This document shows positions 17,699 to 46,912 of a stretch of DNA of 64,000 nt, piece by piece. Each line of letters starts with the position of its first letter. Positions within the stretch are counted from its first letter, which is position 1. Location: NCBI GenBank assembly GCA_016789445.1, contig JAEUQT010000001.1, positions 67,603 through 131,602 on the forward strand, in the 5' to 3' direction. This stretch comes from a bacterium (GTDB lineage: Bacteria; Patescibacteriota; Minisyncoccia; Phycocordibacterales; UBA2100). The position numbers were made by a program, and so were the translations under genes. Below the pieces are notes generated by a model that saw only the letters and a program-made list of their open reading frames with translations, did not search any database and was not told the origin of the DNA.

Positions 17699-20380
17699 TT
17701 ACTGCACCAGCGAGCAGCCGTTCGGGTTCGGCTCCGCTTCGCAGAGACACTTGATAAATGTATCCATCGATTGTTCTGGGTTACAGGTGCGCACATCAAT
17801 CGGATTCGGATTCGAGGAGCTGCCGCCAGATGCGCCCGCTTCCGCACCCGCTCCCCCTTGTACCGGTGCCGCCGTGGAAACCCTGCCGCTTTGTGCGAAG
17901 AGCCGCTTCGGTTCGTTCTCGTCGCCATTCACTCGAACCACCGTCTCATTCACGAACTTATCCTTCCCGGATTCGATGTCACAGATGACCCCGAAGCGTG
18001 TCGAGGAATTGAGTGCAGGTGTCGTGAGCTCGCCATCTTTCCCGCCCCGCTTGATCACGTTCAGCGTGGAGTCGACGACGACGCACGAGAGCGTGCCGAC
18101 GCTCGTCCATGAAAGTACGCTGGTATCGCCATCATCTATAGATGAAGGGTTGGCTGTGATGGATACAACGGCAGCAGGTTGTGTTGGTTTCGGCTGTGAG
18201 GGAGTTGGAGCTGAATTCGATTCGTCATCGTTGAAGAAATTAAGAACGGTACCGAGGAGCGCGCTCAGTATTCCCAGACCTCCTTGCAGGAATGAGTTCG
18301 GGCGCGATGCGGACCGCTGCGTCTGCGTCGGCTTTGGATCCGGTTGCGGCGCTGGCTGCGGAGCAGGTGCTGGGGTTGGAGCCGGCTTGGTATCTGGCGT
18401 CGGCGTGGGTTCAGGTTCAGGAGTCGGCGTCGGTTCCGGCTGAGCAGGAGTCTCCGTAACAGGAATTTCGACCCCCTCCGGAATACTCGCACCGACTCCC
18501 AGCACATACCCGAGACGATCGATCGCCGTGCGCGCAGCTTCTGCCACACGCTCGCCGATCTTGCTCAAACCTTCAAGCAGACGCGAAGGGGTCGGTGCCG
18601 GCTGCGGGGCCGCAGCCGCTATTTCAGATTCGAGATCGATTTCAAAGGTCGTACCTTCAAGTGCTTTCTCGATGGCCGGATCGATCGCACGAAGTTCATC
18701 GAATTTCTTATTGATGATAGCGCTTCGCTCTTCGTCAGTGGTTGCGGCATCAAATTCTTGAACAAGTTCGTTGTATTCTCGCTCGAACTGCGCACGCTGC
18801 TGCGGAGTAAGCGTGTTCTCCAGCGCCTCGGCTTCGGGCGGCGTAGCATCCGTCATCACCGATCCGCCTTGAGCGACTTGTACCGTCGAAGGGATCGCGC
18901 GTACGTCAGCGGCGATCTTCTCGAGACCCTCACGCATCGAGGCAGCCTTCAATTCATTGAGCGCCTGTCGGTAGGCCACGCCTTCCTTCGAGCCGATGCC
19001 GACCCAATCAAGCATCTCGCCGAACCACGAACGATCATCAAGTGCTTCGCGCGTTTCTTCTACCGCAGCAAATGCCTCTGCTGCTGTCGTAGGAATGATG
19101 GTGGCGACTACCGACGGAGGGAGCGGCGTTACCTCGGGAATCGGAACCGTGATGCCGCTCGGATTCTCTGCATCCTTAACCACGGCTGGCGGCAAGGTGC
19201 CGCGCGGTGTATCGCCGATGAGAGGCTCTCCGGAACCGACGGTCGGCAAACCGATGCGATCCGCAGGCTGCAACGGGACGATCGGGAATCCGGTAAGGAT
19301 GTTGCGTTCCAAGGGAAGATCAAGCGGCGATTGTGTCGGCTTGTTGATGTCGATGCCGCGCGATTCGTTGAGTCGCTTCAGTTTCTCGTCGAGCGCCTTG
19401 AGACGATCCTGCGCCGCAGCATCGGCGACCTGTACCGGCGGCTTGGTAGTGACCGGCGTCGGTTGCGGTTGCGGTTGCGGCTGTGGTGTCGGTGCAGGTG
19501 CAGGAGCTGGCGTCGGTGAAGAATTTCCTGAGGAGAGACCGCCTCCCCCGCCGAATCCGCCGAAAAGGCTGCCGATAGTGGAGATGAAATTCGAGAACAG
19601 ATTGAACCCCGCAGACGCACCAGTGCCACCGAATGAGGGTGACGCATCACCGAAGGTATTCCCGAACGGATTCCCTCCGCTGAAAACACCGTCTAGATAT
19701 TCCCTGTTGCCGGAGATGATTCCTCCGATACTCGGCTTGGTTCCCGGTTTCAGCGTGAAGGGAGAGCCCGAATCGGTAAACGTGGTTCCTGGTTTCGGTG
19801 GTGTTACCGGCTTTGGCGATTCCGAAATAAGTTCACCCTCCCATCCCTCTCCTGTCGGCGACGGGCGGACACTTCCACTAGTTCCACCTCCACCTGAACC
19901 GCCGCTCGGAATTGAAGGCGCGGACGGACTCGGGCTCGGCGTTGAAGGCTGCGGAGCACTCGGCGTCGGCGAAGGGGTTGGTGTAGAGGGAGTGGGGGTC
20001 GGGGTTGGTGCTGGTTTAAGTGGATCATCTTTTCCACTTGAGCCACCAGGGATTTCGTACGGCTTATCTTCGAGAGGCTTTCCATCGCACTTGAGCGATG
20101 CCACGCATTTTCCTGACTTACATATTGAAGTGATGACAGGATTGGCGATGTCTTTGCACTCCAAACCGACCTGATCTCCTGATATCGGCTCACGCATACA
20201 CACTTCCCCCTCTTTCAGAGGATCGAAACCATTCTCAACCCCTTGGCCGGCAGCGCAGCGGAAATTACCGACATCTTGGCGTGTACTACCTCGAAGGGGC
20301 GTATCTTGCGCAAAAAGCGTAAGCGGCATACTCGCTGCGAACACAAAAAGTGCCGCAGAGATCTGAAGATGTATCCTCAT
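17699..20380 (-). CDS. large secreted protein (893 aa) with Pro/Thr- and Gly-rich linkers and C-terminal Cys-rich module paralogous to the giant protein
   Basis: Signal peptide MRIHLQISAALFVFAASMPLTLFA. PTPTPEPEPTPTP linkers. C-terminal SIDDGDTSVLSWTSVG...DVRTCNPEQSMDTFIKCLCEAEPNPNGCS. Minus-strand TATAAT 7 nt upstream of the ATG (plus 20388..20393). Confidence 0.85.
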   Translation of the reverse strand: MRIHLQISAALFVFAASMPLTLFAQDTPLRGSTRQDVGNFRCAAGQGVENGFDPLKEGEVCMREPISGDQVGLECKDIANPVITSICKSGKCVASLKCDGKPLEDKPYEIPGGSSGKDDPLKPAPTPTPTPSTPTPSPTPSAPQPSTPSPSPSAPSIPSGGSGGGGTSGSVRPSPTGEGWEGELISESPKPVTPPKPGTTFTDSGSPFTLKPGTKPSIGGIISGNREYLDGVFSGGNPFGNTFGDASPSFGGTGASAGFNLFSNFISTIGSLFGGFGGGGGLSSGNSSPTPAPAPAPTPQPQPQPQPTPVTTKPPVQVADAAAQDRLKALDEKLKRLNESRGIDINKPTQSPLDLPLERNILTGFPIVPLQPADRIGLPTVGSGEPLIGDTPRGTLPPAVVKDAENPSGITVPIPEVTPLPPSVVATIIPTTAAEAFAAVEETREALDDRSWFGEMLDWVGIGSKEGVAYRQALNELKAASMREGLEKIAADVRAIPSTVQVAQGGSVMTDATPPEAEALENTLTPQQRAQFEREYNELVQEFDAATTDEERSAIINKKFDELRAIDPAIEKALEGTTFEIDLESEIAAAAPQPAPTPSRLLEGLSKIGERVAEAARTAIDRLGYVLGVGASIPEGVEIPVTETPAQPEPTPTPEPEPTPTPDTKPAPTPAPAPQPAPQPDPKPTQTQRSASRPNSFLQGGLGILSALLGTVLNFFNDDESNSAPTPSQPKPTQPAAVVSITANPSSIDDGDTSVLSWTSVGTLSCVVVDSTLNVIKRGGKDGELTTPALNSSTRFGVICDIESGKDKFVNETVVRVNGDENEPKRLFAQSGRVSTAAPVQGGAGAEAGASGGSSSNPNPIDVRTCNPEQSMDTFIKCLCEAEPNPNGCSLVQ

Positions 20381-24982: not shown

Positions 24983-26869
24983 ATGTTCATGCAACCTAAC
25001 CAGCCTGCTCCGCAAGGAGGTGGCGAGACCCGCTCGCAAAACCGACCGCACGGCAATCGCCAAGGCGGCGGTCCGCGACAGCGCCGTGGCGGCGCCGGTC
25101 GATCATTTAGACCGAATCGTCCACGCCGCAACTCGATCGTAAAGGTCGAGCATGCAGCACCATCGCCGCGCCAGAAGCCGCAGGCGAAGATCCCGGCAGT
25201 ACCGGAAAACGCGGTGCGCATCGTACCGCTCGGCGGTGTCGAAGAGATCGGCCGCAACATGACGGCGGTGGAAGTCGGCAACGACATCTACATCCTCGAC
25301 GCAGGATTCCAGTTCAAGGAAGACGAGACGCCGGGTATCGATTACATCCTTCCGAACACCGGATACCTCGAAGAGAATCGCGACAAGATCCGCGGTCTTC
25401 TCATCTCGCACGGCCACCTCGACCACATCGGCGGTATTCCCTACATCATGGATCGCGTCGGTAATCCGATGATCTACACGCGCAAGCTCACGGGCAAGAT
25501 GATCCAGAAGCGTCAGGAAGAATTCGCCGGCGCACCGGTCGTCATCCGCGAAGTCGAGAAGGACGAGGCGATCCGCCTCGGTGATCACGTCATCCGCTTC
25601 TTCGGCGTCACCCACACCGTTCCGGATTCGATGGGTATCATCATCGAGACCCCGTGGGGCGATGTCGTCTTTACGGGAGATATCAAGCTCAACCACGACA
25701 ACGGCGAGCCGTCAGACGAGGAAAAGCGCGAATTCTCCATCTTCCAGAACCGCAAGGTATTGGCACTCCTCATGGACTCCACGAACGTGTGGCAGCCGGG
25801 CTTCTCGATTCCTGAGAAGAACGTCTACGCGACGCTCGAGAAGATCGTGAAGGATTCCAACAGCCGCCTCATCATCGCGATGTTCGCCTCCCACTTGGAG
25901 CGCCTCATCCGCGTCATCCATTTCGCGGAAGAAGCGGGCAAGAAGATCATCATCGATGGTCGTTCCATGCGCACCAACATCGAGATCGCGCGCGAGCTTG
26001 GGTTAGTGAAGTACAAGGACGAGAGCGTGGTCAGTGTCGAGAATATGGCGCAGTATCCGCCGGAGAAGCTTGTGATTCTTGCAACCGGCGCACAGGGAGA
26101 CGAATTCGCTTCCCTCGCTCGCATCGGTAACAAGACGCACAAGTACATCCGCTTGCAGCCGACGGACACCGTCGTTCTCTCGTCGTCCGTCATTCCAGGC
26201 AACGAGCGCGCCGTCCAGAAGCTTAAGGACAACCTCTCGCGTCAGGGCGCGCACATCATCACCTACCACGCATCCGACGTTCACGCGTCTGGTCACGGTA
26301 ACCGCGAAGAAGCGGCATGGATCCACAAGCAGGTGAAGCCGAAGTTCTTCATCCCGGTCCACGGCTATCACTACATGCTCCGCGTCCACGGCCATCTCGC
26401 ACACGAGCTCGGTATGCCGAAGGAGAACGTCATGATCCCGGACAACGGTTCGATCATCGAGATCTTCGAAGGAGAGAAGATCACGAAGAACTCGATCAAG
26501 GCGCCGTCGGAACTTCGCGTCGTCGAAGGGCACGTGGTCTCCGAACTGAGCGATGTCTTGATGCGCGATCGTAAGGCGCTTGGTCAGGAAGGTTTCTGTG
26601 TCGTCGTCGCCACCGTCGATCGCCGCACCGGCCGACTCCACAAATCTCCCGACATCATCTCACGCGGCTTCGTCTACCTGAGGGACAACAAGGATCTCAT
26701 GGATCAGACGCGCCTCATCATCCGCAAGAGCGTCGAAGGTTCGATGAAGAACCCGCGCTCAGCCGATCTCGATGCGGCGCGCGAGGATCTCGCCGAGAAC
26801 GTCTCGCGCTTTCTTCTCATGAAGACCCACAAGCGTCCGATCGTGATCCCGGTCATCGTGAGCATCTAG
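24983..26869 (+). CDS. rnj: ribonuclease J (metallo-beta-lactamase/beta-CASP) with Gly/Arg-rich N-terminal extension
   Basis: HGHLDHIGGIPY motif, beta-CASP and C-terminal domain. Start taken at the ATG at 24983 (MFMQPNQ) to avoid overlap with the upstream gene. Confidence 0.9.
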   Translation: MFMQPNQPAPQGGGETRSQNRPHGNRQGGGPRQRRGGAGRSFRPNRPRRNSIVKVEHAAPSPRQKPQAKIPAVPENAVRIVPLGGVEEIGRNMTAVEVGNDIYILDAGFQFKEDETPGIDYILPNTGYLEENRDKIRGLLISHGHLDHIGGIPYIMDRVGNPMIYTRKLTGKMIQKRQEEFAGAPVVIREVEKDEAIRLGDHVIRFFGVTHTVPDSMGIIIETPWGDVVFTGDIKLNHDNGEPSDEEKREFSIFQNRKVLALLMDSTNVWQPGFSIPEKNVYATLEKIVKDSNSRLIIAMFASHLERLIRVIHFAEEAGKKIIIDGRSMRTNIEIARELGLVKYKDESVVSVENMAQYPPEKLVILATGAQGDEFASLARIGNKTHKYIRLQPTDTVVLSSSVIPGNERAVQKLKDNLSRQGAHIITYHASDVHASGHGNREEAAWIHKQVKPKFFIPVHGYHYMLRVHGHLAHELGMPKENVMIPDNGSIIEIFEGEKITKNSIKAPSELRVVEGHVVSELSDVLMRDRKALGQEGFCVVVATVDRRTGRLHKSPDIISRGFVYLRDNKDLMDQTRLIIRKSVEGSMKNPRSADLDAAREDLAENVSRFLLMKTHKRPIVIPVIVSI

Positions 26870-27762
26870 TCGGCAAGCTGCCACGACTTCCCTTTCTTGA
26901 TGAGAAGCCCTTCGGCTTCCATCGCCCGAAGCACCTGCTCGATACGGTAGGTGTTTTTGGTTTGTTCGCGCACGAGTGCCGATTCAGCAATAGGCCCGTC
27001 CATCAAACGACGCAGGAGCTGTCCCCGAAGCTGGCGTTGCGACCCTTCGAATTTCGATTGCACCGTGTGGTGCTTGCTTCTGCGCGACGGGTTCGGGTGC
27101 GCTTTTTTGACATGGGAGCCGTAGTCCATGAATGCTGCATACCATTCGCGCGGTGATTCGGCATGAAGGATGAGTTTCCTGAGGATGGGCATAAGCTTCG
27201 TGTCCGGCACGTTCTTCGATCGAGGGAAGAAATGATGCAGCAGCGCGGCGCGGATATTCGTCTCGATGAACACCTCCGGCTCATCGAATGCAAAAGCACG
27301 GATCGCCCCTGCGGTATACGGGCCGATGGCAGGCAGCGCGACAAGCTTCTCGCGATCCTTCGGGACTTTGCCGCTATGCTTCTCGACGATCGCCTTCGCA
27401 CACTCGCGCAGCAGTTTCCCACGGCGGTTGTAGCCGAGCCCCTGCCACTCCTTCAAGACGCTGGGAAGCGATGCGGATGCGAGTGCTTGAGGGGTCGGGA
27501 ATTTCCGCATCCAGCGCTCGAAATACGGCTTCACGCGATTAACCTGCGTCTGTTGCAGCATGATCTCTGAGACGAGTATCGCGTACGGATCGCGCGTGCG
27601 GCGCCACGGCAGATCATGTCTCCCATATGCCTTCCAATACCCCACCACCAATGAGTGGAAGGCGGCGACCCGTGCGTTTTCATGCTTCTTCGCAGCGCGA
27701 CGGCGCGAGGAGGAATGAATTTTCAGCAGAAAATTACATGACCCCGAAAATGTGCGGGGCAC
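26866..27762 (-). CDS. HhH-GPD superfamily DNA glycosylase (MutY/Nth-like fold, no Fe-S cluster motif)
   Basis: LPWRRTRDPYAILVSEIMLQQTQVNRV and GLGYNRRGKLL match the HhH-GPD signature. No Cys residues at the C-terminus. Confidence 0.8.
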   Translation of the reverse strand: MPRTFSGSCNFLLKIHSSSRRRAAKKHENARVAAFHSLVVGYWKAYGRHDLPWRRTRDPYAILVSEIMLQQTQVNRVKPYFERWMRKFPTPQALASASLPSVLKEWQGLGYNRRGKLLRECAKAIVEKHSGKVPKDREKLVALPAIGPYTAGAIRAFAFDEPEVFIETNIRAALLHHFFPRSKNVPDTKLMPILRKLILHAESPREWYAAFMDYGSHVKKAHPNPSRRSKHHTVQSKFEGSQRQLRGQLLRRLMDGPIAESALVREQTKNTYRIEQVLRAMEAEGLLIKKGKSWQLAD

Positions 27763-28575: not shown

Positions 28576-28834
28576 TATGTCAGAAATGCACCAATGCGAA
28601 ATGCGCATCGCCACTGAGGACAATATGCAGTGCGCGGGTGAGACCAATTGCAGGATCGAGCATAACGGCACGAAAGTGTATGCGTGCGATCCCTGCATTG
28701 CGACCCTTACCGGGACTCCATTCTGCTTCGAGCACGGACGTGTACATATCATGTTCCTTGGGCGCCCCGGTGTATTTGGATGCCCCGATTGCCTGCGCGA
28801 AGCGGATGCCTTACCTCAACAGGTAATGGGATGA
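28576..28834 (+). CDS. cysteine-rich small protein (86 aa, 8 Cys including CDPC and CPDC, probable Zn ribbon)
   Basis: AAGGAGG 6 nt upstream of the ATG. Terminator hairpin immediately downstream. Confidence 0.65.
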
Positions 28835-28860
28835 TTATTTGGCTCGTGGCCAATGTCAGA

Positions 28861-28891
28861 AGTCCCCGATGAAAACATCGGGGACATTCTT
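28861..28891 (+). terminator. intrinsic terminator after Cys-rich gene
   Basis: GTCCCCGATG-AAAA-CATCGGGGAC followed by ATTCTTT. Confidence 0.55.
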
Positions 28892-29006
28892 TGAGAACTC
28901 TCGGTTCTCAACGGGCGATTTCGCTTCGCTCATCACCCTGCTCTCCGACACGGGAAAACTACAGTTTTCCCGACCCCTTTCGCCTCTCGTTGGCTGAAGG
29001 CCAACG
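28890..29006 (+). repeat. structured intergenic repeat, copy A (three hairpins)
   Basis: TTGAGAACTCTCGGTTCTCAA, then CCCTGCTCTCCGACAC, then GGGAAAACTACAGTTTTCCC, then CTCGTTGGC-TGAAG-GCCAACGAG. Homologous to copies at 34429..34542 and 39985..40095. Confidence 0.7.
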
Positions 29007-29648
29007 AGATTTTGCAGGTGGCCACAGTTTTGTGAGGGGGTGCTGCGCGCAATCATGCCGGTGCGCCTTGCAGATGTAACGGCCGTAGAGCACGAGGCCG
29101 TTGTTTACGTATTTCCAGTCTTTCTCCGGCACCAACGCTTCCAGATCCTTTGATATCTTGTTGAGATCGGTATGGGTCGTCAGTTCGAATTTCCGTGCAA
29201 AACGTTTTACGTGCGTGTCCGTCGGGATTCCCGGCCAGACATCAAATAATTCCCCCACAATGACATGCGCCGTCTTATAACCGACGCCCGGTAGTTTCTG
29301 CAGCCTCGCGACATCGTTCGGTACTCTGCCGCCGTATTCTGCCTGTACCATCTTCGCCGACGCGATCACATGCTTCGCTTTCGTGCGGAAGAACGAGACT
29401 CGAGCGATTTCGCGCGCGAATTCATTCGGATCCGCGGACGCAAAATCCTTGGGTGTCTTGTATTTTGCGAAGAGCGTCTCGGTGACTTTATTTACCAGCT
29501 TATCGGTACACTGCGCCGAGAGCATCACCGCAACCACGAACTGGAATGGCGTCGTGTGATTGAGCTCACTTTTTGGTTGCGGATAGGCCTTTTTGAGGTA
29601 GCGGACGATCTTTGCGGCGCGGGCTTTTCGTTCAGCAAGACTCGTCAT
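28959..29648 (-). CDS. nth: endonuclease III-like DNA glycosylase with incomplete Fe-S ligand set
   Basis: HhH-GPD core (LPGVGYKTAHVIVGELF, DTHVKR). C-terminal CKAHRHDC-AQ-H-PLTKL-W where consensus is C-X6-C-X2-C-X5-C. The last 17 codons lie inside repeat copy A. Confidence 0.82.
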   Translation of the reverse strand: MTSLAERKARAAKIVRYLKKAYPQPKSELNHTTPFQFVVAVMLSAQCTDKLVNKVTETLFAKYKTPKDFASADPNEFAREIARVSFFRTKAKHVIASAKMVQAEYGGRVPNDVARLQKLPGVGYKTAHVIVGELFDVWPGIPTDTHVKRFARKFELTTHTDLNKISKDLEALVPEKDWKYVNNGLVLYGRYICKAHRHDCAQHPLTKLWPPAKSRWPSANERRKGSGKL

Positions 29649-33938: not shown

Positions 33939-34328
33939 TTACCAGAGGCCGAAACCCTTTCCTGCCAGATACCCGCCCATGACGATCGCCACCAAGCCGC
34001 CGGAGGTATACCACGTCGGCGTATTGAACTGGCGCATGAGGCGTCCGACTTTCGTGTACGGCATCGCAAGATAGATGATACCTTCGACTGCCATCCAGGC
34101 ACCGACAAGCGTGAGGAGGCCCTGCCAAGTTGCCGTGAAGATAGGGTGTGCGATGACGATCGCGAGACCGGCGAGAAGCTCGGCCACGCCGAGGATGAGA
34201 AGCAGCGGCCTGCTGCCGAGTATCTCCGTGAAGATCGGCATGAATGATCGCTGTCGCATCATGATGATGCCGCCGGCAATCAAGAAATACAGACCGAATA
34301 ATTTCGCAAGAAAGATGGAAAGTTCCAT
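33939..34328 (-). CDS. DoxX-like family membrane protein
   Basis: 129 aa, 4 TM, DoxX-like hydrophobic pattern. Confidence 0.68.
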   Translation of the reverse strand: MELSIFLAKLFGLYFLIAGGIIMMRQRSFMPIFTEILGSRPLLLILGVAELLAGLAIVIAHPIFTATWQGLLTLVGAWMAVEGIIYLAMPYTKVGRLMRQFNTPTWYTSGGLVAIVMGGYLAGKGFGLW

Positions 34329-34428
34329 ATCTGATAAGAGAGGTTTCCCTACCGTTTAATGAGCGAATTGTAACGTATCTAGCGGACCACAATGCTCGCT
34401 TCGCCGTGCAACGGGGATAACTTAAAAC

Positions 34429-34542
34429 TTGAGAACCCTCGGTTCTCAACGGAGAACTTCGCTTTGCTCGTTCCCCTGCTCTCCGACACGGGGAACCGGC
34501 CGCGGTTCCCCGACCCCCTCCGCGATTCGTCTAAGACGAATC
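34429..34542 (+). repeat. structured intergenic repeat, copy B
   Basis: TTGAGAACCCTCGGTTCTCAA, CCCTGCTCTCCGACAC, GGGGAACCGGCCGCGGTTCCCC (compensatory version of hairpin 2), GATTCGTCT-TAAG-ACGAATC. Confidence 0.7.
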
Positions 34543-35101
34543 ATTTCCCCGCCTGCCACGCACCGATCGCATCGATGGGATGGATGAGCTGGATTACATT
34601 GAGCGCGAGCGAATCGCGGATGAAATAGAGCGCGACAAGCTCGAGAGCGATGACAAGTGCGATCGAGGCCCGCGTCGGCAGTTTCCATGTTAGGAGGAAA
34701 CCGATGATGACGGAGATGATATCTCCCACCGAATTGACGATACTGTCGCCGAAATAACCTTGTGCGAGCGCCTGCTCGCGATACCGATCGATGACCATGT
34801 CGGTATTCTCGAACAACTCCCATCCCATTTCTATCCCGATCGCGAGCATGAGGCGGATACCAAGCGGGATACGCGGAAAGAAGTACGTAAGGAGCGCGTA
34901 GAAAAGGACGCCGTGGATGATATGCGAGAGCGAATACCAGTCGCTCACGTGTTGCGAATTGCCGTCGCTGAGCACGACACCGTGCCAGAATTTGATGTAT
35001 CCGCCGGAATACATGAGCGGCTGCCCCATGTACCACAAAAGCCCTGCATGCAGAAGAATAAGTCCCAGAACACCCGCAATTACAAGAAGGATATTTCGCA
35101 T
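34541..35101 (-). CDS. polytopic membrane protein (DUF2585/UPF0314-like)
   Basis: 186 aa, 5 TM. Tightly linked to the upstream DsbD-like gene. Confidence 0.65.
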   Translation of the reverse strand: MRNILLVIAGVLGLILLHAGLLWYMGQPLMYSGGYIKFWHGVVLSDGNSQHVSDWYSLSHIIHGVLFYALLTYFFPRIPLGIRLMLAIGIEMGWELFENTDMVIDRYREQALAQGYFGDSIVNSVGDIISVIIGFLLTWKLPTRASIALVIALELVALYFIRDSLALNVIQLIHPIDAIGAWQAGK

Positions 35102-35102
35102 A

Positions 35103-36791
35103 TCAGCCGAAGGTAAACGTAAACGCTTCTAAGGTACCGCTCTTCACCCTGATTTCGAGCACGTGCTCTTCCCCACTGGGATTGCGGATGAGCTCGTAGA
35201 GGCGCTCATCCTGTACCCGTACCACACCTGTTTGTACATCTTTGCCCGCAGCAGCATTCACGATCTCACCATCCTGCCATATCTCAAGTTCAGCTCCTTG
35301 CGCGGAACCTGCCACCATAAATACCTCACCCGCTTTATAGCGGAATACGATCGTTGCGTCCTCCGATACTGAAGCTGCATGTTCGGGAGTGATGTTCCAG
35401 GTGCCGCCAAGATACAGCGCATTCAGCACGAACGAATCCGGAAGCGTAAATGATTGCTGCCCCGGTACGAAACGCTTCCCTCCTGCAAGATTTTGATTGC
35501 GCAGCGATCCGAAATAGATCTCCGGGCTTTGCGCAAGATTCCGGGCTTCACTTCGCTGATCGGCAACCAAGGGGAGAGACACATCGGGTTCGGGAAGACT
35601 AAGTTTCTCTGCGCGATCCCGCAATGCCTCGCGGATCTTCTTTTCAGTCTCGGCGTACCCGCCTTCGCCGATATGGTCGTAGATGATATTCCCCTCGATA
35701 TCCACGAGATATTTGCGGGGCCAGTACTGATTGCCGCAGGCGCGCCACGTCGCGTAATTATTATCCAAGACCACCGGATAGGTGATACCGAATTTCCGCA
35801 TCGCCTCCTCCACGTTGTTGATGTCCTTCTCGAACGCGAATTCCGGCGTGTGAATGCCGATGATCTCCAGACCCTGATCCTTGTATCGTTCGTACCAGGC
35901 GTTCATATACGGGAATGTGCGTTGGCAATTGATGCAGCTATAGGTCATGAAATCGATGAGAATGACCTTCTTCCCCACCAGTTCACCGACCGTGATTCCG
36001 TCGGTATTCACGAATCCTGCGGGGGACTCGATCTCGAAATACGGACGGATGCCCGTCTCTTCTTCCATGCCGATACGCTGCAGGAGTCGCTGTTCCCAAC
36101 GGACGGAATCAACATACCCGCTTTCCAAGAGCCACACTTCAAACTTCTTTTCGTAGCCCGATGCGATAAGTAGACCGAGCGCAATAAAGAGGATGCCGAC
36201 CGTCTTTTTGAGGGCGCCACGAGAATCAGCTGCGCGTGTAAGACGATCCGCGAACCGCTGTCCGATGAGCGCGATACAGATGAGCATGATCGCAAGCCCA
36301 GCGGTATACGCGAGAAGATAGGAAAAGCCGAGCAGAAATGAAGCCGGCAGCACCGTGGCAAGGATGACGAAATACGTCGGCGAACACGATGAGAATACCG
36401 GACCGAGTGCGACGCCGATTACGACATCGCCCCAGAAGCTTTTCTTCTGATACCCCGTACCGACGAGTTTATTCGAACGCGATGAGAGTTTTGCCATCCC
36501 GGGGATTCGTTCCCACAAGGAGGGGAATATGAACGTGAATCCCAAGAAGACGAGCAGCCCTCCGGATAGATACGTCCAGAAACTTTCAGGTACGGCAATG
36601 AAGAGCGATGAGACTTTAAGGAGGAGCGTGAAGAGGATTATCGAGAGCGAAACCGAAGCGACGACGACATAGGGCGTGAGCCTGCTCCTCTCTGCCGCGG
36701 AAGAGCCCACGACCACCGGCAGGAGCGGTAGTATGCACGGAGCAAGGACGGTCAGCGTACCGGCAAGAAACGATACCGCAAGAAGCGCCAT
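35103..36791 (-). CDS. thiol:disulfide interchange protein, DsbD/CcdA-like transmembrane domain fused to thioredoxin-like (TlpA/ResA-type) domain
   Basis: N-terminal TM with LAPCILPLLP, central TM bundle, then thioredoxin CXXC (YSCINCQRT). Confidence 0.82.
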   Translation of the reverse strand: MALLAVSFLAGTLTVLAPCILPLLPVVVGSSAAERSRLTPYVVVASVSLSIILFTLLLKVSSLFIAVPESFWTYLSGGLLVFLGFTFIFPSLWERIPGMAKLSSRSNKLVGTGYQKKSFWGDVVIGVALGPVFSSCSPTYFVILATVLPASFLLGFSYLLAYTAGLAIMLICIALIGQRFADRLTRAADSRGALKKTVGILFIALGLLIASGYEKKFEVWLLESGYVDSVRWEQRLLQRIGMEEETGIRPYFEIESPAGFVNTDGITVGELVGKKVILIDFMTYSCINCQRTFPYMNAWYERYKDQGLEIIGIHTPEFAFEKDINNVEEAMRKFGITYPVVLDNNYATWRACGNQYWPRKYLVDIEGNIIYDHIGEGGYAETEKKIREALRDRAEKLSLPEPDVSLPLVADQRSEARNLAQSPEIYFGSLRNQNLAGGKRFVPGQQSFTLPDSFVLNALYLGGTWNITPEHAASVSEDATIVFRYKAGEVFMVAGSAQGAELEIWQDGEIVNAAAGKDVQTGVVRVQDERLYELIRNPSGEEHVLEIRVKSGTLEAFTFTFG

Positions 36792-36795
36792 CGCG

Positions 36796-38019
36796 TTATT
36801 CTACCGCTTCTTTCGAGAGGGATTTGAGCGCAACACTGTACGCCGCATCGCGCAGCGAGATCTTTTGTGCGACTGATTCCGCATACACGTTCTCTGCGGC
36901 TGCTTCCATCATCGGGCGCAGCTTCGCGAATACGTCCTCTTTCGTCCATTTCTCCTGCCGCCTGTTCTGCTCCCATTCGAAATAGGAGACCGCCACTCCT
37001 CCTGCGTTCGCAAGAATGTCAGGAATCACGATTATTCCCTTGTTATTCAGAATCGCATCCGCTTCGAGCGTGGTCGGACCATTTGCGAGCTCGAGCACGA
37101 TCGATGCTTTGATATCAGGTGCGTTCGTCTCCGTGATGGAATTCTCGAGGGCTGCCGGGACGATGATATCGACGGGGAGCGCCAGAACATCAGAAGGGGA
37201 GATGGCAGTTCCACCGAAACCGGAGAGCGTCCCCTTTTCGTCTTTGAATTTTCCTACCGCTTCGACATCGATGCCGTCTTCCTTGTAGATACCGCTCTTC
37301 GAATCGGAAAGACCGACGATAGTGAATCCTTGGCGGGAGAGGTACTCCGCAAGATATGAACCTACATTACCGAATCCCTGGATCGCAACCGTCCCCTTCG
37401 GCTCTTTCCCCAGCTTCCGCATGATCGCTTCAAGTGCGAAGCCGCCGCCGTAGCCCGTAGCCTCAGTGCGACCTTCAGAACCACCCTGTCCAACCGGCTT
37501 TCCGGTGACGACTGCGGGCGAATGCTCACCGACATGCTTCGAATACTCATCCGCGATCCAATGCATCATCTGCGCATTCGATCCCACATCCGGTGCCGGC
37601 ACGTCTTTTTCAGGTCCGATGACATGCGCGAGCTCACGTGCGAAATTCCGTGTGAGACGTTCCAACTCTCCTTCTGAGAGCGATTTCGGATCGACTTCGA
37701 TGCCGCCTTTGCCGCCGCCGAAGGGGACTCCGATGAGAGCATTCTTCATCGTCATCCAGAACGCGAGCGCCTTCGCCTCATCGAGATCCACCTGCGGATG
37801 GAAACGCAAACCGCCCTTGTATGGCCCGCGGATATTATTGTGCTGCACGCGATACCCACGGAAGGTCTTGGTCTCCCCGCTATCCATTTCAACAGGCACG
37901 TTCACTTCGACGACCCGATCAGGTTCCTTGAGGCGCTGCTGGAGATTGGGATGCGCTTCGGTGAGCTCGAGCGTTCGCTGTAATTGCGCCAGAGCGCGCT
38001 GCCAGGGATTGTTCTGCAT
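36796..38019 (-). CDS. gdhA: Glu/Leu/Phe/Val family dehydrogenase (glutamate dehydrogenase)
   Basis: KGGLRFHPQVDLDEAKALAFWMT and GGGKGGIEVDPK motifs. Rossmann GFGNVGSY. Confidence 0.9.
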   Translation of the reverse strand: MQNNPWQRALAQLQRTLELTEAHPNLQQRLKEPDRVVEVNVPVEMDSGETKTFRGYRVQHNNIRGPYKGGLRFHPQVDLDEAKALAFWMTMKNALIGVPFGGGKGGIEVDPKSLSEGELERLTRNFARELAHVIGPEKDVPAPDVGSNAQMMHWIADEYSKHVGEHSPAVVTGKPVGQGGSEGRTEATGYGGGFALEAIMRKLGKEPKGTVAIQGFGNVGSYLAEYLSRQGFTIVGLSDSKSGIYKEDGIDVEAVGKFKDEKGTLSGFGGTAISPSDVLALPVDIIVPAALENSITETNAPDIKASIVLELANGPTTLEADAILNNKGIIVIPDILANAGGVAVSYFEWEQNRRQEKWTKEDVFAKLRPMMEAAAENVYAESVAQKISLRDAAYSVALKSLSKEAVE

Positions 38020-38037
38020 CTAAGGATTTTACTGGAA

Positions 38038-38088
38038 AACGCCAAGAATGCCCGGCCTTTTGGCACGGGGCATTCTTGGCGTTCTTTT
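38038..38088. terminator. long-stem hairpin (16 bp) with flanking A/T runs, 19 nt upstream of gdh start
   Basis: AACGCCAAGAATGCCC ... GGGCATTCTTGGCGTT, then TCTTTTG. Confidence 0.5.
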
Positions 38089-38122
38089 GAAAAGAGCGCC
38101 GGCGGGCGCATCCGCTTCCAGC

Positions 38123-38189
38123 AAAAACGCCCGGTCCGAATTAACAAACTCCGCGCTCGTCGCGCAGAGTTTGTTAATTCGGCGTTTTT
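38123..38189 (-). terminator. long imperfect hairpin terminator immediately after the sugar dehydrogenase stop
   Basis: AAAAACGCC...CCGAATTAACAAACTC...GAGTTTGTTAATTCGG...GGCGTTTTT. Confidence 0.5.
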
Positions 38190-39345
38190 ACTCCTCTCTT
38201 TTCACAATGCGAAAGATGCGATCATCCCCTTCAGCCGGAGAGCCGCGGCCATCCTGGTTAGATGTCGCAAAGTAGATCGCCCCGTCCGGCCCCTCGATCA
38301 CCTCGCGGATTCGTCCGTATTCTTCGCGGAAAAGACGATCAAACCCTGATGCGGCGCCATCCACCAAAGAGACCCGCATCAGGTTCTCTCCACGAAGCGC
38401 ACCGAAGAAAAGATTATCCTTGAATTGCGGAAAGAGCTTCCCCGAATAGATCATGGCAGATGACGGCGCCTCTGCTGGAGTAAAAACGAGAAGGGGAGAA
38501 ACCGTTCCTTCTTTCGTCTTCTCATGCGAGACCAATGGCCAGCCGTAATTCCCTCCCATCACGATCTTATTCACCTCATCACCTCCGCCAGGGCCGTCGA
38601 AACCGGACGGACCATGTTCCGTCTCGTACATCTCTCTTTTCGAATTCCACGCGATGCCCTGCGGGTTCCGATGCCCGTAGCTCCAGATAGGTGATTGCGG
38701 GAAGGGATTCCCCTCCGGAATCGACCCGTCGTCATTCACGCGCAGTATCTTCCCTGCGAGCGAATTCAGATCCTGGGCGAGTTCACCATCGGTCGCGTCT
38801 CCGGTCGTGATATAGAGCTTCCCGTCGGGACCGAATGCTAATTCGCAACCCGCATGGAAGCGCGCCGCTGGGATATCGCGCACGATCGGTATGATGTCGG
38901 AAATAGAATCACCCTCGTCTTTGAATCGCACGACATCGACACGCATTCCTTCAGACCCTTGATAAGCATACGCGGTATATACGTATTTGTTTGAAGCATA
39001 CTGCGGGTGGAGCGTCAGCGACATGAGTCCCTCTTCGCCACCACTCGAGACTTCATCAAAAGTATGGAGCGGCGCTTCGCGCAGCGTGCCGTTTTCAACC
39101 ACCCGAATGCGTCCGGGACGTTCTGTAATGAGCATGCGTGTCGATGAGGTAAAAACGATGCCCCATGGCACTTCAAGACCGCGCACGACTTCTTCGACCC
39201 GATAGGCGACTTCCCCGTCCATAACGGGAATCGTAGCATCCGCTGTCTGATTGATGGGTGAATATCCAAGCCAATAGATACCGAAGGCAGTCGTGATAAT
39301 GAGGGCGAGAACGGCGAACGCGGTAGCGAACGGAAGGGAATTCAT
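38188..39345 (-). CDS. PQQ-dependent sugar (glucose/sorbosone) dehydrogenase family beta-propeller protein, membrane-anchored
   Basis: HAGCELAFGPDGKLYITTGDA, HRNPQGIAW and NYGWP motifs. Start taken at MNSLPFATAFAVLALI (ATG 39345) inside the longer ORF. Confidence 0.85.
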   Translation of the reverse strand: MNSLPFATAFAVLALIITTAFGIYWLGYSPINQTADATIPVMDGEVAYRVEEVVRGLEVPWGIVFTSSTRMLITERPGRIRVVENGTLREAPLHTFDEVSSGGEEGLMSLTLHPQYASNKYVYTAYAYQGSEGMRVDVVRFKDEGDSISDIIPIVRDIPAARFHAGCELAFGPDGKLYITTGDATDGELAQDLNSLAGKILRVNDDGSIPEGNPFPQSPIWSYGHRNPQGIAWNSKREMYETEHGPSGFDGPGGGDEVNKIVMGGNYGWPLVSHEKTKEGTVSPLLVFTPAEAPSSAMIYSGKLFPQFKDNLFFGALRGENLMRVSLVDGAASGFDRLFREEYGRIREVIEGPDGAIYFATSNQDGRGSPAEGDDRIFRIVKREE

Positions 39346-39347
39346 TG

Positions 39348-39926
39348 TTATTTGAATACCACCGTCCGAAGGATATCCTCGAAGTCCCGTCGAATGCCGT
39401 CTTCTGGCGTGAGATAGGTACTGGTGAATGCGTATACATATGATGGACGGGCGATCGCGGTCGTGTCGCCTCGATACAAGCCGTCCCAGGTATAGGTCAG
39501 CGACTGCTGCCCTGCGATCGTCGTCGATGAAAGCTTCCCATCCACGGACTGTTTGAAATTCGAAGCGCTGGAATTCTTGATCCACTCTTCCGTGGTCAGA
39601 TCATCCAGATCATTCTGGATCATTTCTATGGAAATAGCAGGCGGCCCCTCGCCTCCTTGCGGTGCGGGGAGATCGGTAATGCGCATAAGGGTGACCACAT
39701 GATGACGACGCTGGGAACTTCCCGGCAGATCACGTTCCGTAAGCTGATATGAGGACGGATAGCGGAATTCGATGCCGTATTCCGGCGAACTATACGTTTT
39801 CAGGCTCGCGCCCGGTGTGGATGTGGAGGTATCCGGCGTTGGCACTTGGACCGCCTGGTCAGAGAGGAGCCAATACCCGCCGGCCGCAAGAACGACAACC
39901 ACTACGATGCCGATAAGCGCTTTCAT
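39348..39926 (-). CDS. hypothetical exported/membrane-anchored protein
   Basis: MKALIGIVVVVVLAAGGYWLL N-terminal anchor. Ends 2 nt before the downstream gene. Confidence 0.6.
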   Translation of the reverse strand: MKALIGIVVVVVLAAGGYWLLSDQAVQVPTPDTSTSTPGASLKTYSSPEYGIEFRYPSSYQLTERDLPGSSQRRHHVVTLMRITDLPAPQGGEGPPAISIEMIQNDLDDLTTEEWIKNSSASNFKQSVDGKLSSTTIAGQQSLTYTWDGLYRGDTTAIARPSYVYAFTSTYLTPEDGIRRDFEDILRTVVFK

Positions 39927-39984
39927 AACCGCACTATACCAACGCCGCGTATTTTTTCCATGAACCAACAAGATTCTCTTGTTT

Positions 39985-40095
39985 TTGAGAACCCTCGGTT
40001 CTCAACGGACGCCAGCGCTTCGCTCGGCGCCCTGCTCTCCGACACGGGAAAACTACAGTTTTCCCGACCCCTTTCGCCTCGCGCTGCTGCGCGAG
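39985..40095 (+). repeat. structured intergenic repeat, copy C
   Basis: TTGAGAACCCTCGGTTCTCAA, CCCTGCTCTCCGACAC, GGGAAAACTACAGTTTTCCC, CTCGCGC-TGCTG-CGCGAG. Confidence 0.7.
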
Positions 40096-40100
40096 CCGCT

Positions 40101-40694
40101 TCAAGTACCCGAAAGCTTGGTAAATACGACCAGGCGCTGATCGTACGTCTTGGCGGATTTCACCCACGAGCCGCCGCAGGTTATGAGATTCAGCCGCGCA
40201 GAACCCGAAGGATTGAAAATGATCTCCGTCGGCACCGCGTCATACGGGTACGATCGCTTACCGGTGACCACGAATGTGCGCCGGGTCCCGTCACGCCGCT
40301 CGACGATTATCTCATCGCCGGTTTCAAGTTCATCGAGGCGTTTGAAAACACCAGAGAGCCCGAGTCCGTTGTCGACATGTCCGGCAATGACCGAAGATCC
40401 TGCGCCGCCGGGCACGACGCCGTACTTGTACCAACCGACATCGGTGAAATTGCTCGGCACTCCCATGTTGCCTGCAGCATTTACGCCGACATCCTGCACA
40501 TTCGCATCGATACCGAGCGAAGGGACGATGAGGCGTACCGGATGGTGCTGCGGATTCGAGGCCACCACCTCATCAGGTGGCACCGTGATCTCCGTATCCG
40601 GGTTGTAGAAGAACGCACGCACGATGGTCGTGGTGAATATCGCGACCGCACAGAGCGTGAGCGTGAATATGAAAAAACGCGAAAGTCTGGCCAT
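40101..40694 (-). CDS. sortase family transpeptidase
   Basis: N-terminal TM, catalytic His (VIAGHVD), TLXTC motif (LNLITCGG) and conserved Arg. Confidence 0.85.
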   Translation of the reverse strand: MARLSRFFIFTLTLCAVAIFTTTIVRAFFYNPDTEITVPPDEVVASNPQHHPVRLIVPSLGIDANVQDVGVNAAGNMGVPSNFTDVGWYKYGVVPGGAGSSVIAGHVDNGLGLSGVFKRLDELETGDEIIVERRDGTRRTFVVTGKRSYPYDAVPTEIIFNPSGSARLNLITCGGSWVKSAKTYDQRLVVFTKLSGT

Positions 40695-40756
40695 ATGAAT
40701 ACTAAGACGTGCGCAGCCAAGGCATCTTTCGATGCCCGGGCTGCGCAAAGGCACTG

Positions 40757-45916: not shown

Positions 45917-46912
45917 TTATTCGATCGAGCCGAGCCTTTCGAGACCTTCGCTCGCGGTGACCACCTCGATGTTCGACTGCTTTACATAGTCGACAATCTG
46001 CGTGAGCAGCTCGCTGGAAATATTCACGGCGGTATCACCCGAACCTTCGTCTACCGGTTCGTCTACCTTATGGATAAGGAAGATGACCCATTTCTTCTGC
46101 GCAATTGCCTGATCGATCACCTCCTTGGCCTTCTCGAACGTCATATTGCTCGCATTCCAGCTGTAGAGAACGTAGCGATCGGTGTTTTTATCGTTGAATC
46201 CCTCCTCGACGCCGCGGGCACCGCTGAAGGACCCTGCTACCACAGTGCGGACATCATTGTTCACTGCACCGTAGGGATACGCGAAAACCTTAGTCTCATG
46301 CCCGAGATTCGCGAGGTCTTGCTTACCACCGATCACTTCATCCTGGACCCGTTGACTGTCTAAGGTTGTCAAATCCGGATGCGATCTGGTATGTGCCCCA
46401 ATCTCATGCCCACGTGCCGCTATATCGGCCAGATTGTTCGGTTTTATGAATGCCTCATAGCCTCCGTCTCCGAGATACTCCGTCGTGACGTAATAGGTCG
46501 TCTTGATGCCTGCAGCATCGAAGATGGGAAGCCCTTTCTCATAGCCTGATATCCATCCGTCATCAAAATCGAATGAAATAAGCGCACCACTTGCCGGCTG
46601 CGGCGCAGGTTGCGGTTCTGGAGTCGGAGTCGGGTCTGGTTCCGGCTGCGGCGCAGGTTCTGGAGTCGGCGTTGGCGTCGGTTCAGGTTGCGGCTGCGGT
46701 TCCGGCGTCGGCGTCGGCGTCGGCGTCGGCTCAGGAGTTGGCGTTGGAGCCGGACCACGAAGCGAATTGCGCAATTCGACACGCATCTGCACTGCAGCTT
46801 CTCGAGCCGCACGAGCGGCTTCGCGATCGGCGTGCGCCGTCTGATAAGGGAGACCAGTACTCACCAAAACAAGTGACGCGAGTACAATCAAAGCATTGAA
46901 TCGCTTCATCAT
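45917..46912 (-). CDS. secreted polysaccharide deacetylase (CE4/NodB domain) with Pro-rich linker
   Basis: Signal peptide, PTPEPTPTPTPEPQPQPEPTP linker, NodB motifs FDFDDGW and HTRSHPDL. Confidence 0.85.
   Translation of the reverse strand: MMKRFNALIVLASLVLVSTGLPYQTAHADREAARAAREAAVQMRVELRNSLRGPAPTPTPEPTPTPTPTPEPQPQPEPTPTPTPEPAPQPEPDPTPTPEPQPAPQPASGALISFDFDDGWISGYEKGLPIFDAAGIKTTYYVTTEYLGDGGYEAFIKPNNLADIAARGHEIGAHTRSHPDLTTLDSQRVQDEVIGGKQDLANLGHETKVFAYPYGAVNNDVRTVVAGSFSGARGVEEGFNDKNTDRYVLYSWNASNMTFEKAKEVIDQAIAQKKWVIFLIHKVDEPVDEGSGDTAVNISSELLTQIVDYVKQSNIEVVTASEGLERLGSIE

Follow-up and report, generated by a model that had tools for sequence, protein, structure and literature searches.

The stretch analysed here (hereafter the window) comprises 64,000 nucleotides from a bacterium of the lineage Patescibacteriota; Minisyncoccia; Phycocordibacterales; UBA2100 (GenBank assembly GCA_016789445.1, contig JAEUQT010000001.1, positions 67,603 to 131,602 of the forward strand). 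Its minus strand encodes two DNA glycosylases of the helix-hairpin-helix (HhH) family, of the kind that usually carries a [4Fe-4S] cluster: an endonuclease III (EndoIII), the product of nth and called Nth below, and a MutY-like protein. The 3' end of nth runs into the first of three copies of a structured repeat, beyond which lies a small convergent open reading frame (ORF; Table 1). Our main subject is the C-terminal cluster region of Nth, followed by the footprint that the repeat has left on the gene. What the [4Fe-4S] cluster contributes to EndoIII and MutY is a long-standing question; the proposals are that it supports the structure, binds DNA, acts allosterically or serves the search for lesions by DNA-mediated charge transport.

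Table 1. Features of the nth region and related features elsewhere in the window (position 1 is the first letter of the window; aa, amino acids).
Feature	Position	Strand	Basis or remark
MutYX-type adenine DNA glycosylase, predicted clusterless	26866..27762	minus	8UUC match, Pfam HhH-GPD, motifs, Cys-poor homologues
Small Cys-rich ORF, 85 aa, CxxC...CxxC, zinc-ribbon-like, convergent with nth	28578..28834	plus	AAGGAGG 6 nt before ATG
Relic of ancestral nth 3' end, TGG CCA CGA GCC AAA TAA (WPRAK-stop)	28835..28852	minus	match to nth end of locus L001
Variable hairpin at far end of copy A, GTCCCCGATG-AAAA-CATCGGGGAC	28862..28885		terminator scan, + strand, 10 pairs
Repeat copy A, conserved core	28886..28987	minus	repeat family D2, three-copy alignment; model R1 hit 28886-28983, 92.3 bits, E 2e-18
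nth (endonuclease III) coding sequence, 229 aa	28959..29648	minus	ORF list, Pfam, TIGR01083, PDB match, AF2/Foldseek
Hairpin H3 (CGTTGGC-CTTCA-GCCAACG, nth strand)	28988..29006	minus	nth codons R215-N220 and first base of E221
Lineage-specific aromatic C-terminal segment W209-PPAKSR-W216-P217	28998..29024	minus	conservation; pLDDT only 60-75
Degenerate cluster motif C193-KAHR-H198-D-C200-AQ-H203-PLTKL-W209 (proposed Cys2His2 site and Trp plug)	29022..29072	minus	1ORN alignment, homologue conservation
Repeat copy B, core 34424-34523 and hairpin 34524-34542	34424..34542	minus	model R1, 76 bits, E 8e-15
Repeat copy C, core 39980-40077 and hairpin 40078-40095	39980..40095	minus	model R1, 94.1 bits, E 8e-19

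Nth carries an HhH-GPD domain (PF00730, E = 1.8e-19), and a phmmer search against the PDB sequences aligned it without gaps, end to end, with the EndoIII of G. stearothermophilus (1ORN/1P59, E about 7e-45 to 9e-45) and likewise with that of E. coli (2ABK). The AlphaFold2 (AF2) model, built from 51 homologues, reached a mean predicted local distance difference test score (pLDDT) of 84.6, and its top Foldseek matches were 1ORN/2ABK (template modelling score 0.78); the pLDDT was only 60–75 over residues 191–220 and below 50 for the last eight residues. Lys125 and Asp144, which align with E. coli K120 of the HhH motif and the catalytic D138, respectively, are invariant among the 51 aligned homologues. 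Nth shares with these enzymes the HhH-GPD fold, the HhH motif, the catalytic Lys and Asp, the total length, the basic loop between the first and second cluster cysteines and collinearity to the very end. However, it clears the cutoff of the TIGR01083 nth equivalog by only ~1 bit (212.9 versus 211.7 bits), it adds an aromatic WPPAxxRWP extension, it has His for Pro at position 198, and it holds just two of the four residues of the Cys-X6-Cys-X2-Cys-X5-Cys ligand set.

The C-terminal part of the protein reads ...YGRYIC(193)KAHRH(198)DC(200)AQH(203)PLTKLW(209)PPAKSRWPSANERRKGSGKL-stop, with the terminus ...YGRYICKAHRHDCAQHPLTKLWPPAKSRWPSANERRKGSGKL. In the alignment to 1ORN/1P59, C193 and C200 fall on the first and second cluster cysteines, H203 on the third and W209 on the fourth, giving a spacing of C193-X6-C200-X2-H203-X5-W209 versus the canonical C-X6-C-X2-C-X5-C. 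A preliminary description of this stretch had reported two absent ligands with His and Trp at the third and fourth positions, and the ungapped alignment bears this out exactly; it had overlooked that four conserved Cys/His positions (193, 198, 200 and 203) suggest a replacement metal site.

We searched 5.8 billion proteins for homologues of Nth and, from the 5046 obtained, analyzed the best 120 (68–94% identity); where named, these carry the labels Kaiserbacteria, Parcubacteria, Paceibacterota or Minisyncoccia. The motif C-x4-H-x-C-x2-H-P-L-T-K-[LI]-W was present in all of them, with C193, H198, C200, H203 and W209 each invariant (120/120). Within the aromatic segment, A212 and W216 are invariant as well, whereas conservation of P210 and P217 is 90% or higher. 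The loss of two iron-sulphur (Fe-S) ligands is inherited across this bacterial group, and, as far as sequence can tell, the earlier suggestion that the Nth of this lineage tolerates being without the cluster holds lineage-wide (120/120 homologues).

To reach deeper relatives, we ran HMMER in full over 1.84 billion sequences that represent clusters at 50% identity. Among the best 150 representatives, 104 showed the canonical pattern C-P-C-C-C at positions 193, 198, 200, 203 and 209, with Pro at 198, and every one of these was at most 47% identical to Nth. The nearest representatives are non-canonical (CHCHW, CHCHY, CHCC(Y/L) and CHHC), and in sister clusters all positions have been lost at once (e.g. 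AYIDY, SKADL, GYQDL) with the catalytic residues kept. When a CHHC member served as the seed of a third search, a large second family of Patescibacteria EndoIII emerged, with the motif C-x4-H-x-H-x2-C and the labels Jorgensen-, Giovannoni-, Brenner-, Lipton- and Roizmanbacteria. Here, C193-H198-H200-C203 is found in 114/120 sequences, the other six lacking one of the four residues; the protein terminates shortly after the motif, and the fourth canonical Cys position is variable or absent. The two large families therefore place two Cys and two His at the identical four positions, with Cys and His exchanged between 200 and 203, and His198 substitutes for the canonical Pro only where the other three positions are Cys or His.

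Exchange of Cys for His at constant positions, combined with loss of either all ligands or none, is what marks a metal site, and hence we infer a Cys2His2 site in Nth: this conservation, in which the ligands are kept or lost as a set, suggests that a compact mononuclear zinc-type site has replaced the [4Fe-4S] cluster. C193, H198, C200 and H203, four residues within eleven positions, would form this site and pin the former cluster loop, which retains basic residues for contact with the DNA backbone, and the cavity vacated by the cluster would be filled by the invariant Trp209 and the WPPAxxRWP extension. We accordingly favour, at a probability of roughly 0.6, the reading that nth encodes a functional EndoIII of a lineage-wide Patescibacteria variant without the four-cysteine [4Fe-4S] site and with a Cys2His2 zinc-type replacement. 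Taken separately, the canonical cluster is very probably absent from Nth, and a zinc-type site has somewhat better than even odds.

Structural zinc has precedents among HhH glycosylases, namely the Cys2His2 "zinc snap" of TAG and the zinc linchpin of MutY/MUTYH. As proposed for Nth, zinc stabilizes the glycosylase in these cases; however, the snap lies at the termini and the linchpin in the interdomain connector, whereas the Nth site would occupy the former cluster loop. Several points speak against a zinc-type replacement. Sequence cannot give the metal content of Nth, the confidence of the AF2 model is no more than moderate for residues 191–220, and the CHHC family includes the six members with an incomplete set. 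Sister clusters manage with none of the four positions, so the metal may be dispensable, and two Cys plus two His could also hold a Rieske-type [2Fe-2S] cluster.

One rival explanation is a clusterless and wholly metal-free Nth, in which the Cys and His residues would just pack or form hydrogen bonds and the aromatic extension alone would steady the former cluster loop, like the helices of MutYX, a glycosylase that compensates without any metal (PMC12631127). The sister clusters, which retain their catalytic residues with all four positions gone, and the six CHHC-family members with one ligand missing are in line with this explanation. Packing alone, however, explains poorly why the four positions are conserved in 120/120 and 114/120 sequences of two families with a Cys/His swap at 200/203, and why His198 appears for Pro only alongside Cys or His at the other three. 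We consider a metal-free Nth unlikely.

Fe-S sites with two Cys and two His, or with three Cys and one His, occur in other protein families, and C193, H198, C200 and H203 might by this precedent hold a Rieske- or mitoNEET-like [2Fe-2S] or a mixed Cys/His [4Fe-4S] cluster. The C-H-C-C intermediates among the 50%-identity representatives would agree with such a site. Although E. coli MutY tolerates His as the second ligand, changing the other ligands abolishes its function (PMC12631127). In Nth, moreover, the four residues span 11 positions, tighter than the canonical 17, a bulky Trp sits at the fourth ligand position, and the MutY that accompanies it in these genomes is homologous to MutYX, which has no cluster. 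A retained non-canonical Fe-S cluster appears improbable.

The companion gene matches the crystal structure of Eggerthella MutYX (PDB 8UUC) with E = 9.9e-64 over residues 49–257, including the start of the X domain. Its IETN aligns with LETN of 8UUC, with the catalytic Glu in place of Asp as in the Actinobacteria-type MutYX, and the NPSRRSKHHTVQSKFEGSQRQLRG motif (QSKFEGSQR) is retained with Q and R eight residues apart, which compares with Q201/R209, the 8-oxoguanine recognition pair of MutYX (Trasvina-Arenas et al., NAR 2025, PMC12631127). TIGR01084 covers only the N-terminal domain, at 172.9 bits and below cutoff, in keeping with a MutY-type domain devoid of the four Cys; Pfam gives HhH-GPD and HHH only, and no NUDIX-like C-terminal domain of MutY was found in this protein of ~270 aa counted from the homologous start. 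No Cys follows residue 120, and in most of the 120 closest homologues the former cluster region and everything beyond it are likewise free of Cys. By these features the product is a clear homologue of the known, recently described MutYX family, whose crystallized member has no cluster and sets the precedent that clusterless HhH glycosylases work; the same study notes EndoIII variants without cluster ligands (PMC12631127). The preliminary description was therefore right about the missing C-terminal Cys of this gene, and its prediction that both glycosylases lack a cluster is supported. Nth would resemble MutYX in belonging to the [4Fe-4S] subfamily of HhH glycosylases and in having shed its cluster in anaerobe-type lineages. 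In MutYX, however, all Cys have been removed and the region rebuilt with helices and a new C-terminal domain, whereas Nth retains the loop architecture and the four Cys/His residues.

As a side observation on the MutYX-like gene, the canonical start ATG AAA ACG (27683–27675; compare MKT... of the homologues) is one base out of frame. The ORF is open from an upstream GTG at 27762, adding ~27 residues (region 27675–27762). This extension is probably real, since other samples yielded a protein of 98% identity (P0121) that has it too.

If our reading of Nth is correct, Patescibacteria may have removed Fe-S clusters from both of their cluster-type base-excision glycosylases, with the cluster loop of EndoIII converted to a Cys2His2 zinc knuckle and MutY replaced by MutYX. 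They would then be organisms that naturally do without signalling between the two enzymes by cluster-mediated DNA charge transport. A bacterial radiation with an EndoIII minus its four-Cys site, a conserved Cys2His2 set and MutYX alongside would be a natural test of which cluster functions are replaceable and by what means, and the annotation "endonuclease III", given by an equivalog barely over its cutoff, would conceal a change of cofactor. Clusterless MutYX and the existence of ligand-lacking EndoIII variants are already known; a literature search on clusterless or zinc EndoIII in the candidate phyla radiation (Patescibacteria) returned nothing relevant, neither the Patescibacteria case nor the zinc proposal being found in the literature searched. 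No plausible gene with an Fe-S Cys motif turned up when the window ORFs of 90 aa or more were searched by regular expression, which for a 64-kb sample is not decisive.

The preliminary description had offered a further explanation, in which ligands 3 and 4 disappeared when insertion of the repeat rebuilt the nth 3' end. It is true that the final nth codons overlap the repeat and that the stop lies inside it, but the repeat core begins at codon 221, twelve codons past W209. The 120 homologues usually terminate at ~220 aa with ...RWP(R/K)A(K/H); a tail of the type (E/D)xRKGSGKL or a variant is confined to ten of them, the window protein included. Because 110/120 orthologues have no repeat-encoded tail, yet all 120 have the motif, the repeat is not the cause of the ligand loss. 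The pattern found, C-X6-C-X2-H-X5-W in repeat-free close orthologues such as L001 (...CALHPLTKLWPPAKDKWPRAK-stop), is the one which that description had itself tied to ancestral divergence rather than insertion. The H/W motif is virtually certain to be ancestral, and removal of the ligands by the repeat, refuted by these orthologues, can be set aside. Next to no credence is due either to an error of sequencing or assembly or to pseudogene decay: TGG (Trp209) is one base change from a Cys codon, but His203 to Cys needs two, the ORF is intact with invariant catalytic residues, and the recurrence of the motif in many independent assemblies from many samples refutes this explanation and excludes the sequencing error that had been named as a possible refutation.

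Remodelling by the repeat nevertheless holds, though only for the last 9–15 codons of nth. Of the final 17 codons previously assigned to copy A, the core, whose sequence conservation extends to about 28987, supplies nine (E221–L229) together with the TAG stop (28959–28961) in the loop of hairpin H2. The preceding codons R215–N220 lie instead in the copy-specific hairpin H3, which is recognizable as a proximal, diverged duplicate of the ancestral nth end, i.e. of the gene's own terminus. In the RNA fold H3 grows to a 10-bp stem; a counterpart hairpin of other sequence flanks copies B and C and other loci, and the RWPxAN hairpin is also present in L028 and L030. At the opposite end of copy A, the variable hairpin is terminator-like for the convergent small ORF and also forms part of the nth-sense RNA fold.

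The ancestral state is provided by L001, a repeat-free orthologue (87% identity) in which nth ends ...KDKWPRAK-TAA and the stop of the convergent small ORF follows one base later. In the window, a relic 17/18 identical to this nth end (TGG CCA CGA GCT AAA TAA in L001) is located beyond the element from nth and directly adjoins the stop of the small ORF, and relics distal to the element were found in three more element-bearing nth loci (L028, WPRTK-stop; L029, WPRAAARWPRTK-stop; L030, WPRAS-stop). We are highly confident that the Nth tail arose as the footprint of an insertion. The element, small and structured, entered nth a few codons before the old stop and displaced WPRAK-stop to its far side; nth now reads via RWPSAN, a duplicate of RWPRAK, into the nine element codons ERRKGSGKL and halts in the hairpin loop. 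Its 3' tail would thereby record the footprint of a small mobile structured element outside Rfam. The tail is probably disordered and functionally neutral, because the model predicts it at very low confidence.

Nth proteins with the element do not group together: leaving aside the pair of the window protein and P0001, every one has an element-free protein as its nearest neighbour; therefore, either insertion at this site has recurred or the element has repeatedly been lost with precision. Two contigs with 94%-identical Nth (L002, 6666–6693; L003, 1482–1508) stop inside the element, exactly at the nth stop, which fits assembly breaks at a multi-copy repeat. A similar small Cys-rich ORF can be read by eye at the same place of L001, in an interval without a called gene.

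The window contains exactly three copies of the repeat according to model R1 (E 8e-19 to 8e-15). Copy B directly follows the stop of a DUF2585 gene, and the empty site in L001 shows that it went cleanly into a native hairpin (GGGGA..TCCCC), within the loop; it is missing from the syntenic site in two relatives. Copy C starts 5 nt after the stop of a 217-aa ORF (40101..40754). As a side observation, the interval from the DUF2585 gene to a 129-aa gene lacks copies B and C in these two relatives (window 33939–40754 versus L001/L002), and the gene order of L002 differs by a 207-aa gene in between, which hints at a possible repeat-associated rearrangement between copies B and C relative to L002.

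Beyond the window, an invariant 19-mer of the repeat was found in 14 Patescibacteria metagenome-assembled genomes (Saccharibacteria, Nomurabacteria, Paceibacterota and Parcubacteria) of a one-genome-per-species GTDB set and in ~27 metagenome contigs, every occurrence lying within the same conserved element of roughly 80–100 nt; the element as a whole measures about 100–150 nt. Two matches of the 19-mer in viral contigs were discarded as chance, since both sit within an ORF for a phage structural protein and the model gives them 11 bits. RNAalifold and pair counts over 24 cores in nth-sense gave three helices with 98% pairing. Double-substitution cells in the helices numbered 16 versus 4.0 +/- 1.5 in shuffles (0/500), all three helices show compensatory changes, and G-U pairs are confined to the nth-sense orientation. 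For the 178-nt nth-sense RNA, the folding energy is -86.4 kcal/mol (z = -7.8), and some copies carry an additional domain of 45–60 nt in the H1 loop. A coding function of the repeat was rejected, as the length of hairpin H2 differs by 2 nt between copies.

Rfam at its gathering threshold, applied to the whole window and six loci, reported only tRNA and rRNA and left the repeat unmatched; with E up to 10 on 28780–29080, the best hits over the repeat were noise (Chloroflexus-1, E 0.48; sX8; RsaE). Inspection by eye for small ribozymes, riboswitches and related RNAs (hammerhead, twister, ykkC, TPP, SRP, tmRNA, group II domain V) gave nothing consistent across copies.

The commonest site of the element is the 3' end of rplL; it also sits at the 3' end of nth and, on the 5' side, at the ends of lepA, rnhA and a gene for a typA-like GTPase. 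At many sites it is placed between diverged direct duplicates (16–42 nt) of the gene end, which for rplL and nth take in a hairpin. We also observed a displaced 5' fragment (ATG and 14–19 codons) before the element upstream of lepA, typA and rnhA (L018, 693–931; L022, 974–1212; L005, 7476–7714; L024, 2167–2405). At lepA (L018), the displaced fragment and the resident copy differ, by eye, only synonymously, and at the other loci almost only so. This suggests that the fragments stem from a different functional allele and travelled with the element, or that the allele was replaced later; a simple target-site duplication as the origin of the flanking repeats is doubtful, since the L018 lepA differences are all synonymous.

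We read the repeat as a non-autonomous, site- or structure-specific mobile element. That it represents a new class of small, structured, strand-specific mobile elements across Patescibacteria, which home to conserved gene ends and duplicate or replace them so that the host gene survives, is a tentative proposal to which we give rather less than even credence. Integrative elements that target gene ends and bring a replacement end are known, e.g. tRNA- or dusA-targeting islands, as are small hairpin-targeting elements such as the IS200/IS605-derived palindrome-associated transposable elements (PATEs) and integron attC sites. The repeat shares with these the insertion at conserved gene ends, a doubled target end with an intact gene, strand-specific hairpins and a patchy phyletic distribution. 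Unlike them, it measures only ~100–150 nt with no recombinase gene inside, its target duplications of 16–42 nt span a hairpin, and it has neither terminal inverted repeats nor an Rfam match. A literature search on miniature inverted-repeat transposable elements or structured mobile RNAs in Patescibacteria returned nothing relevant.

Finally, GC-rich arrays with 6- and 12-nt periodicity (GGCGTC/GGTTGC-type) are found at 18328–18441, 19453–19518 and 46594–46755 of the window, where they probably encode low-complexity linkers in large ORFs.

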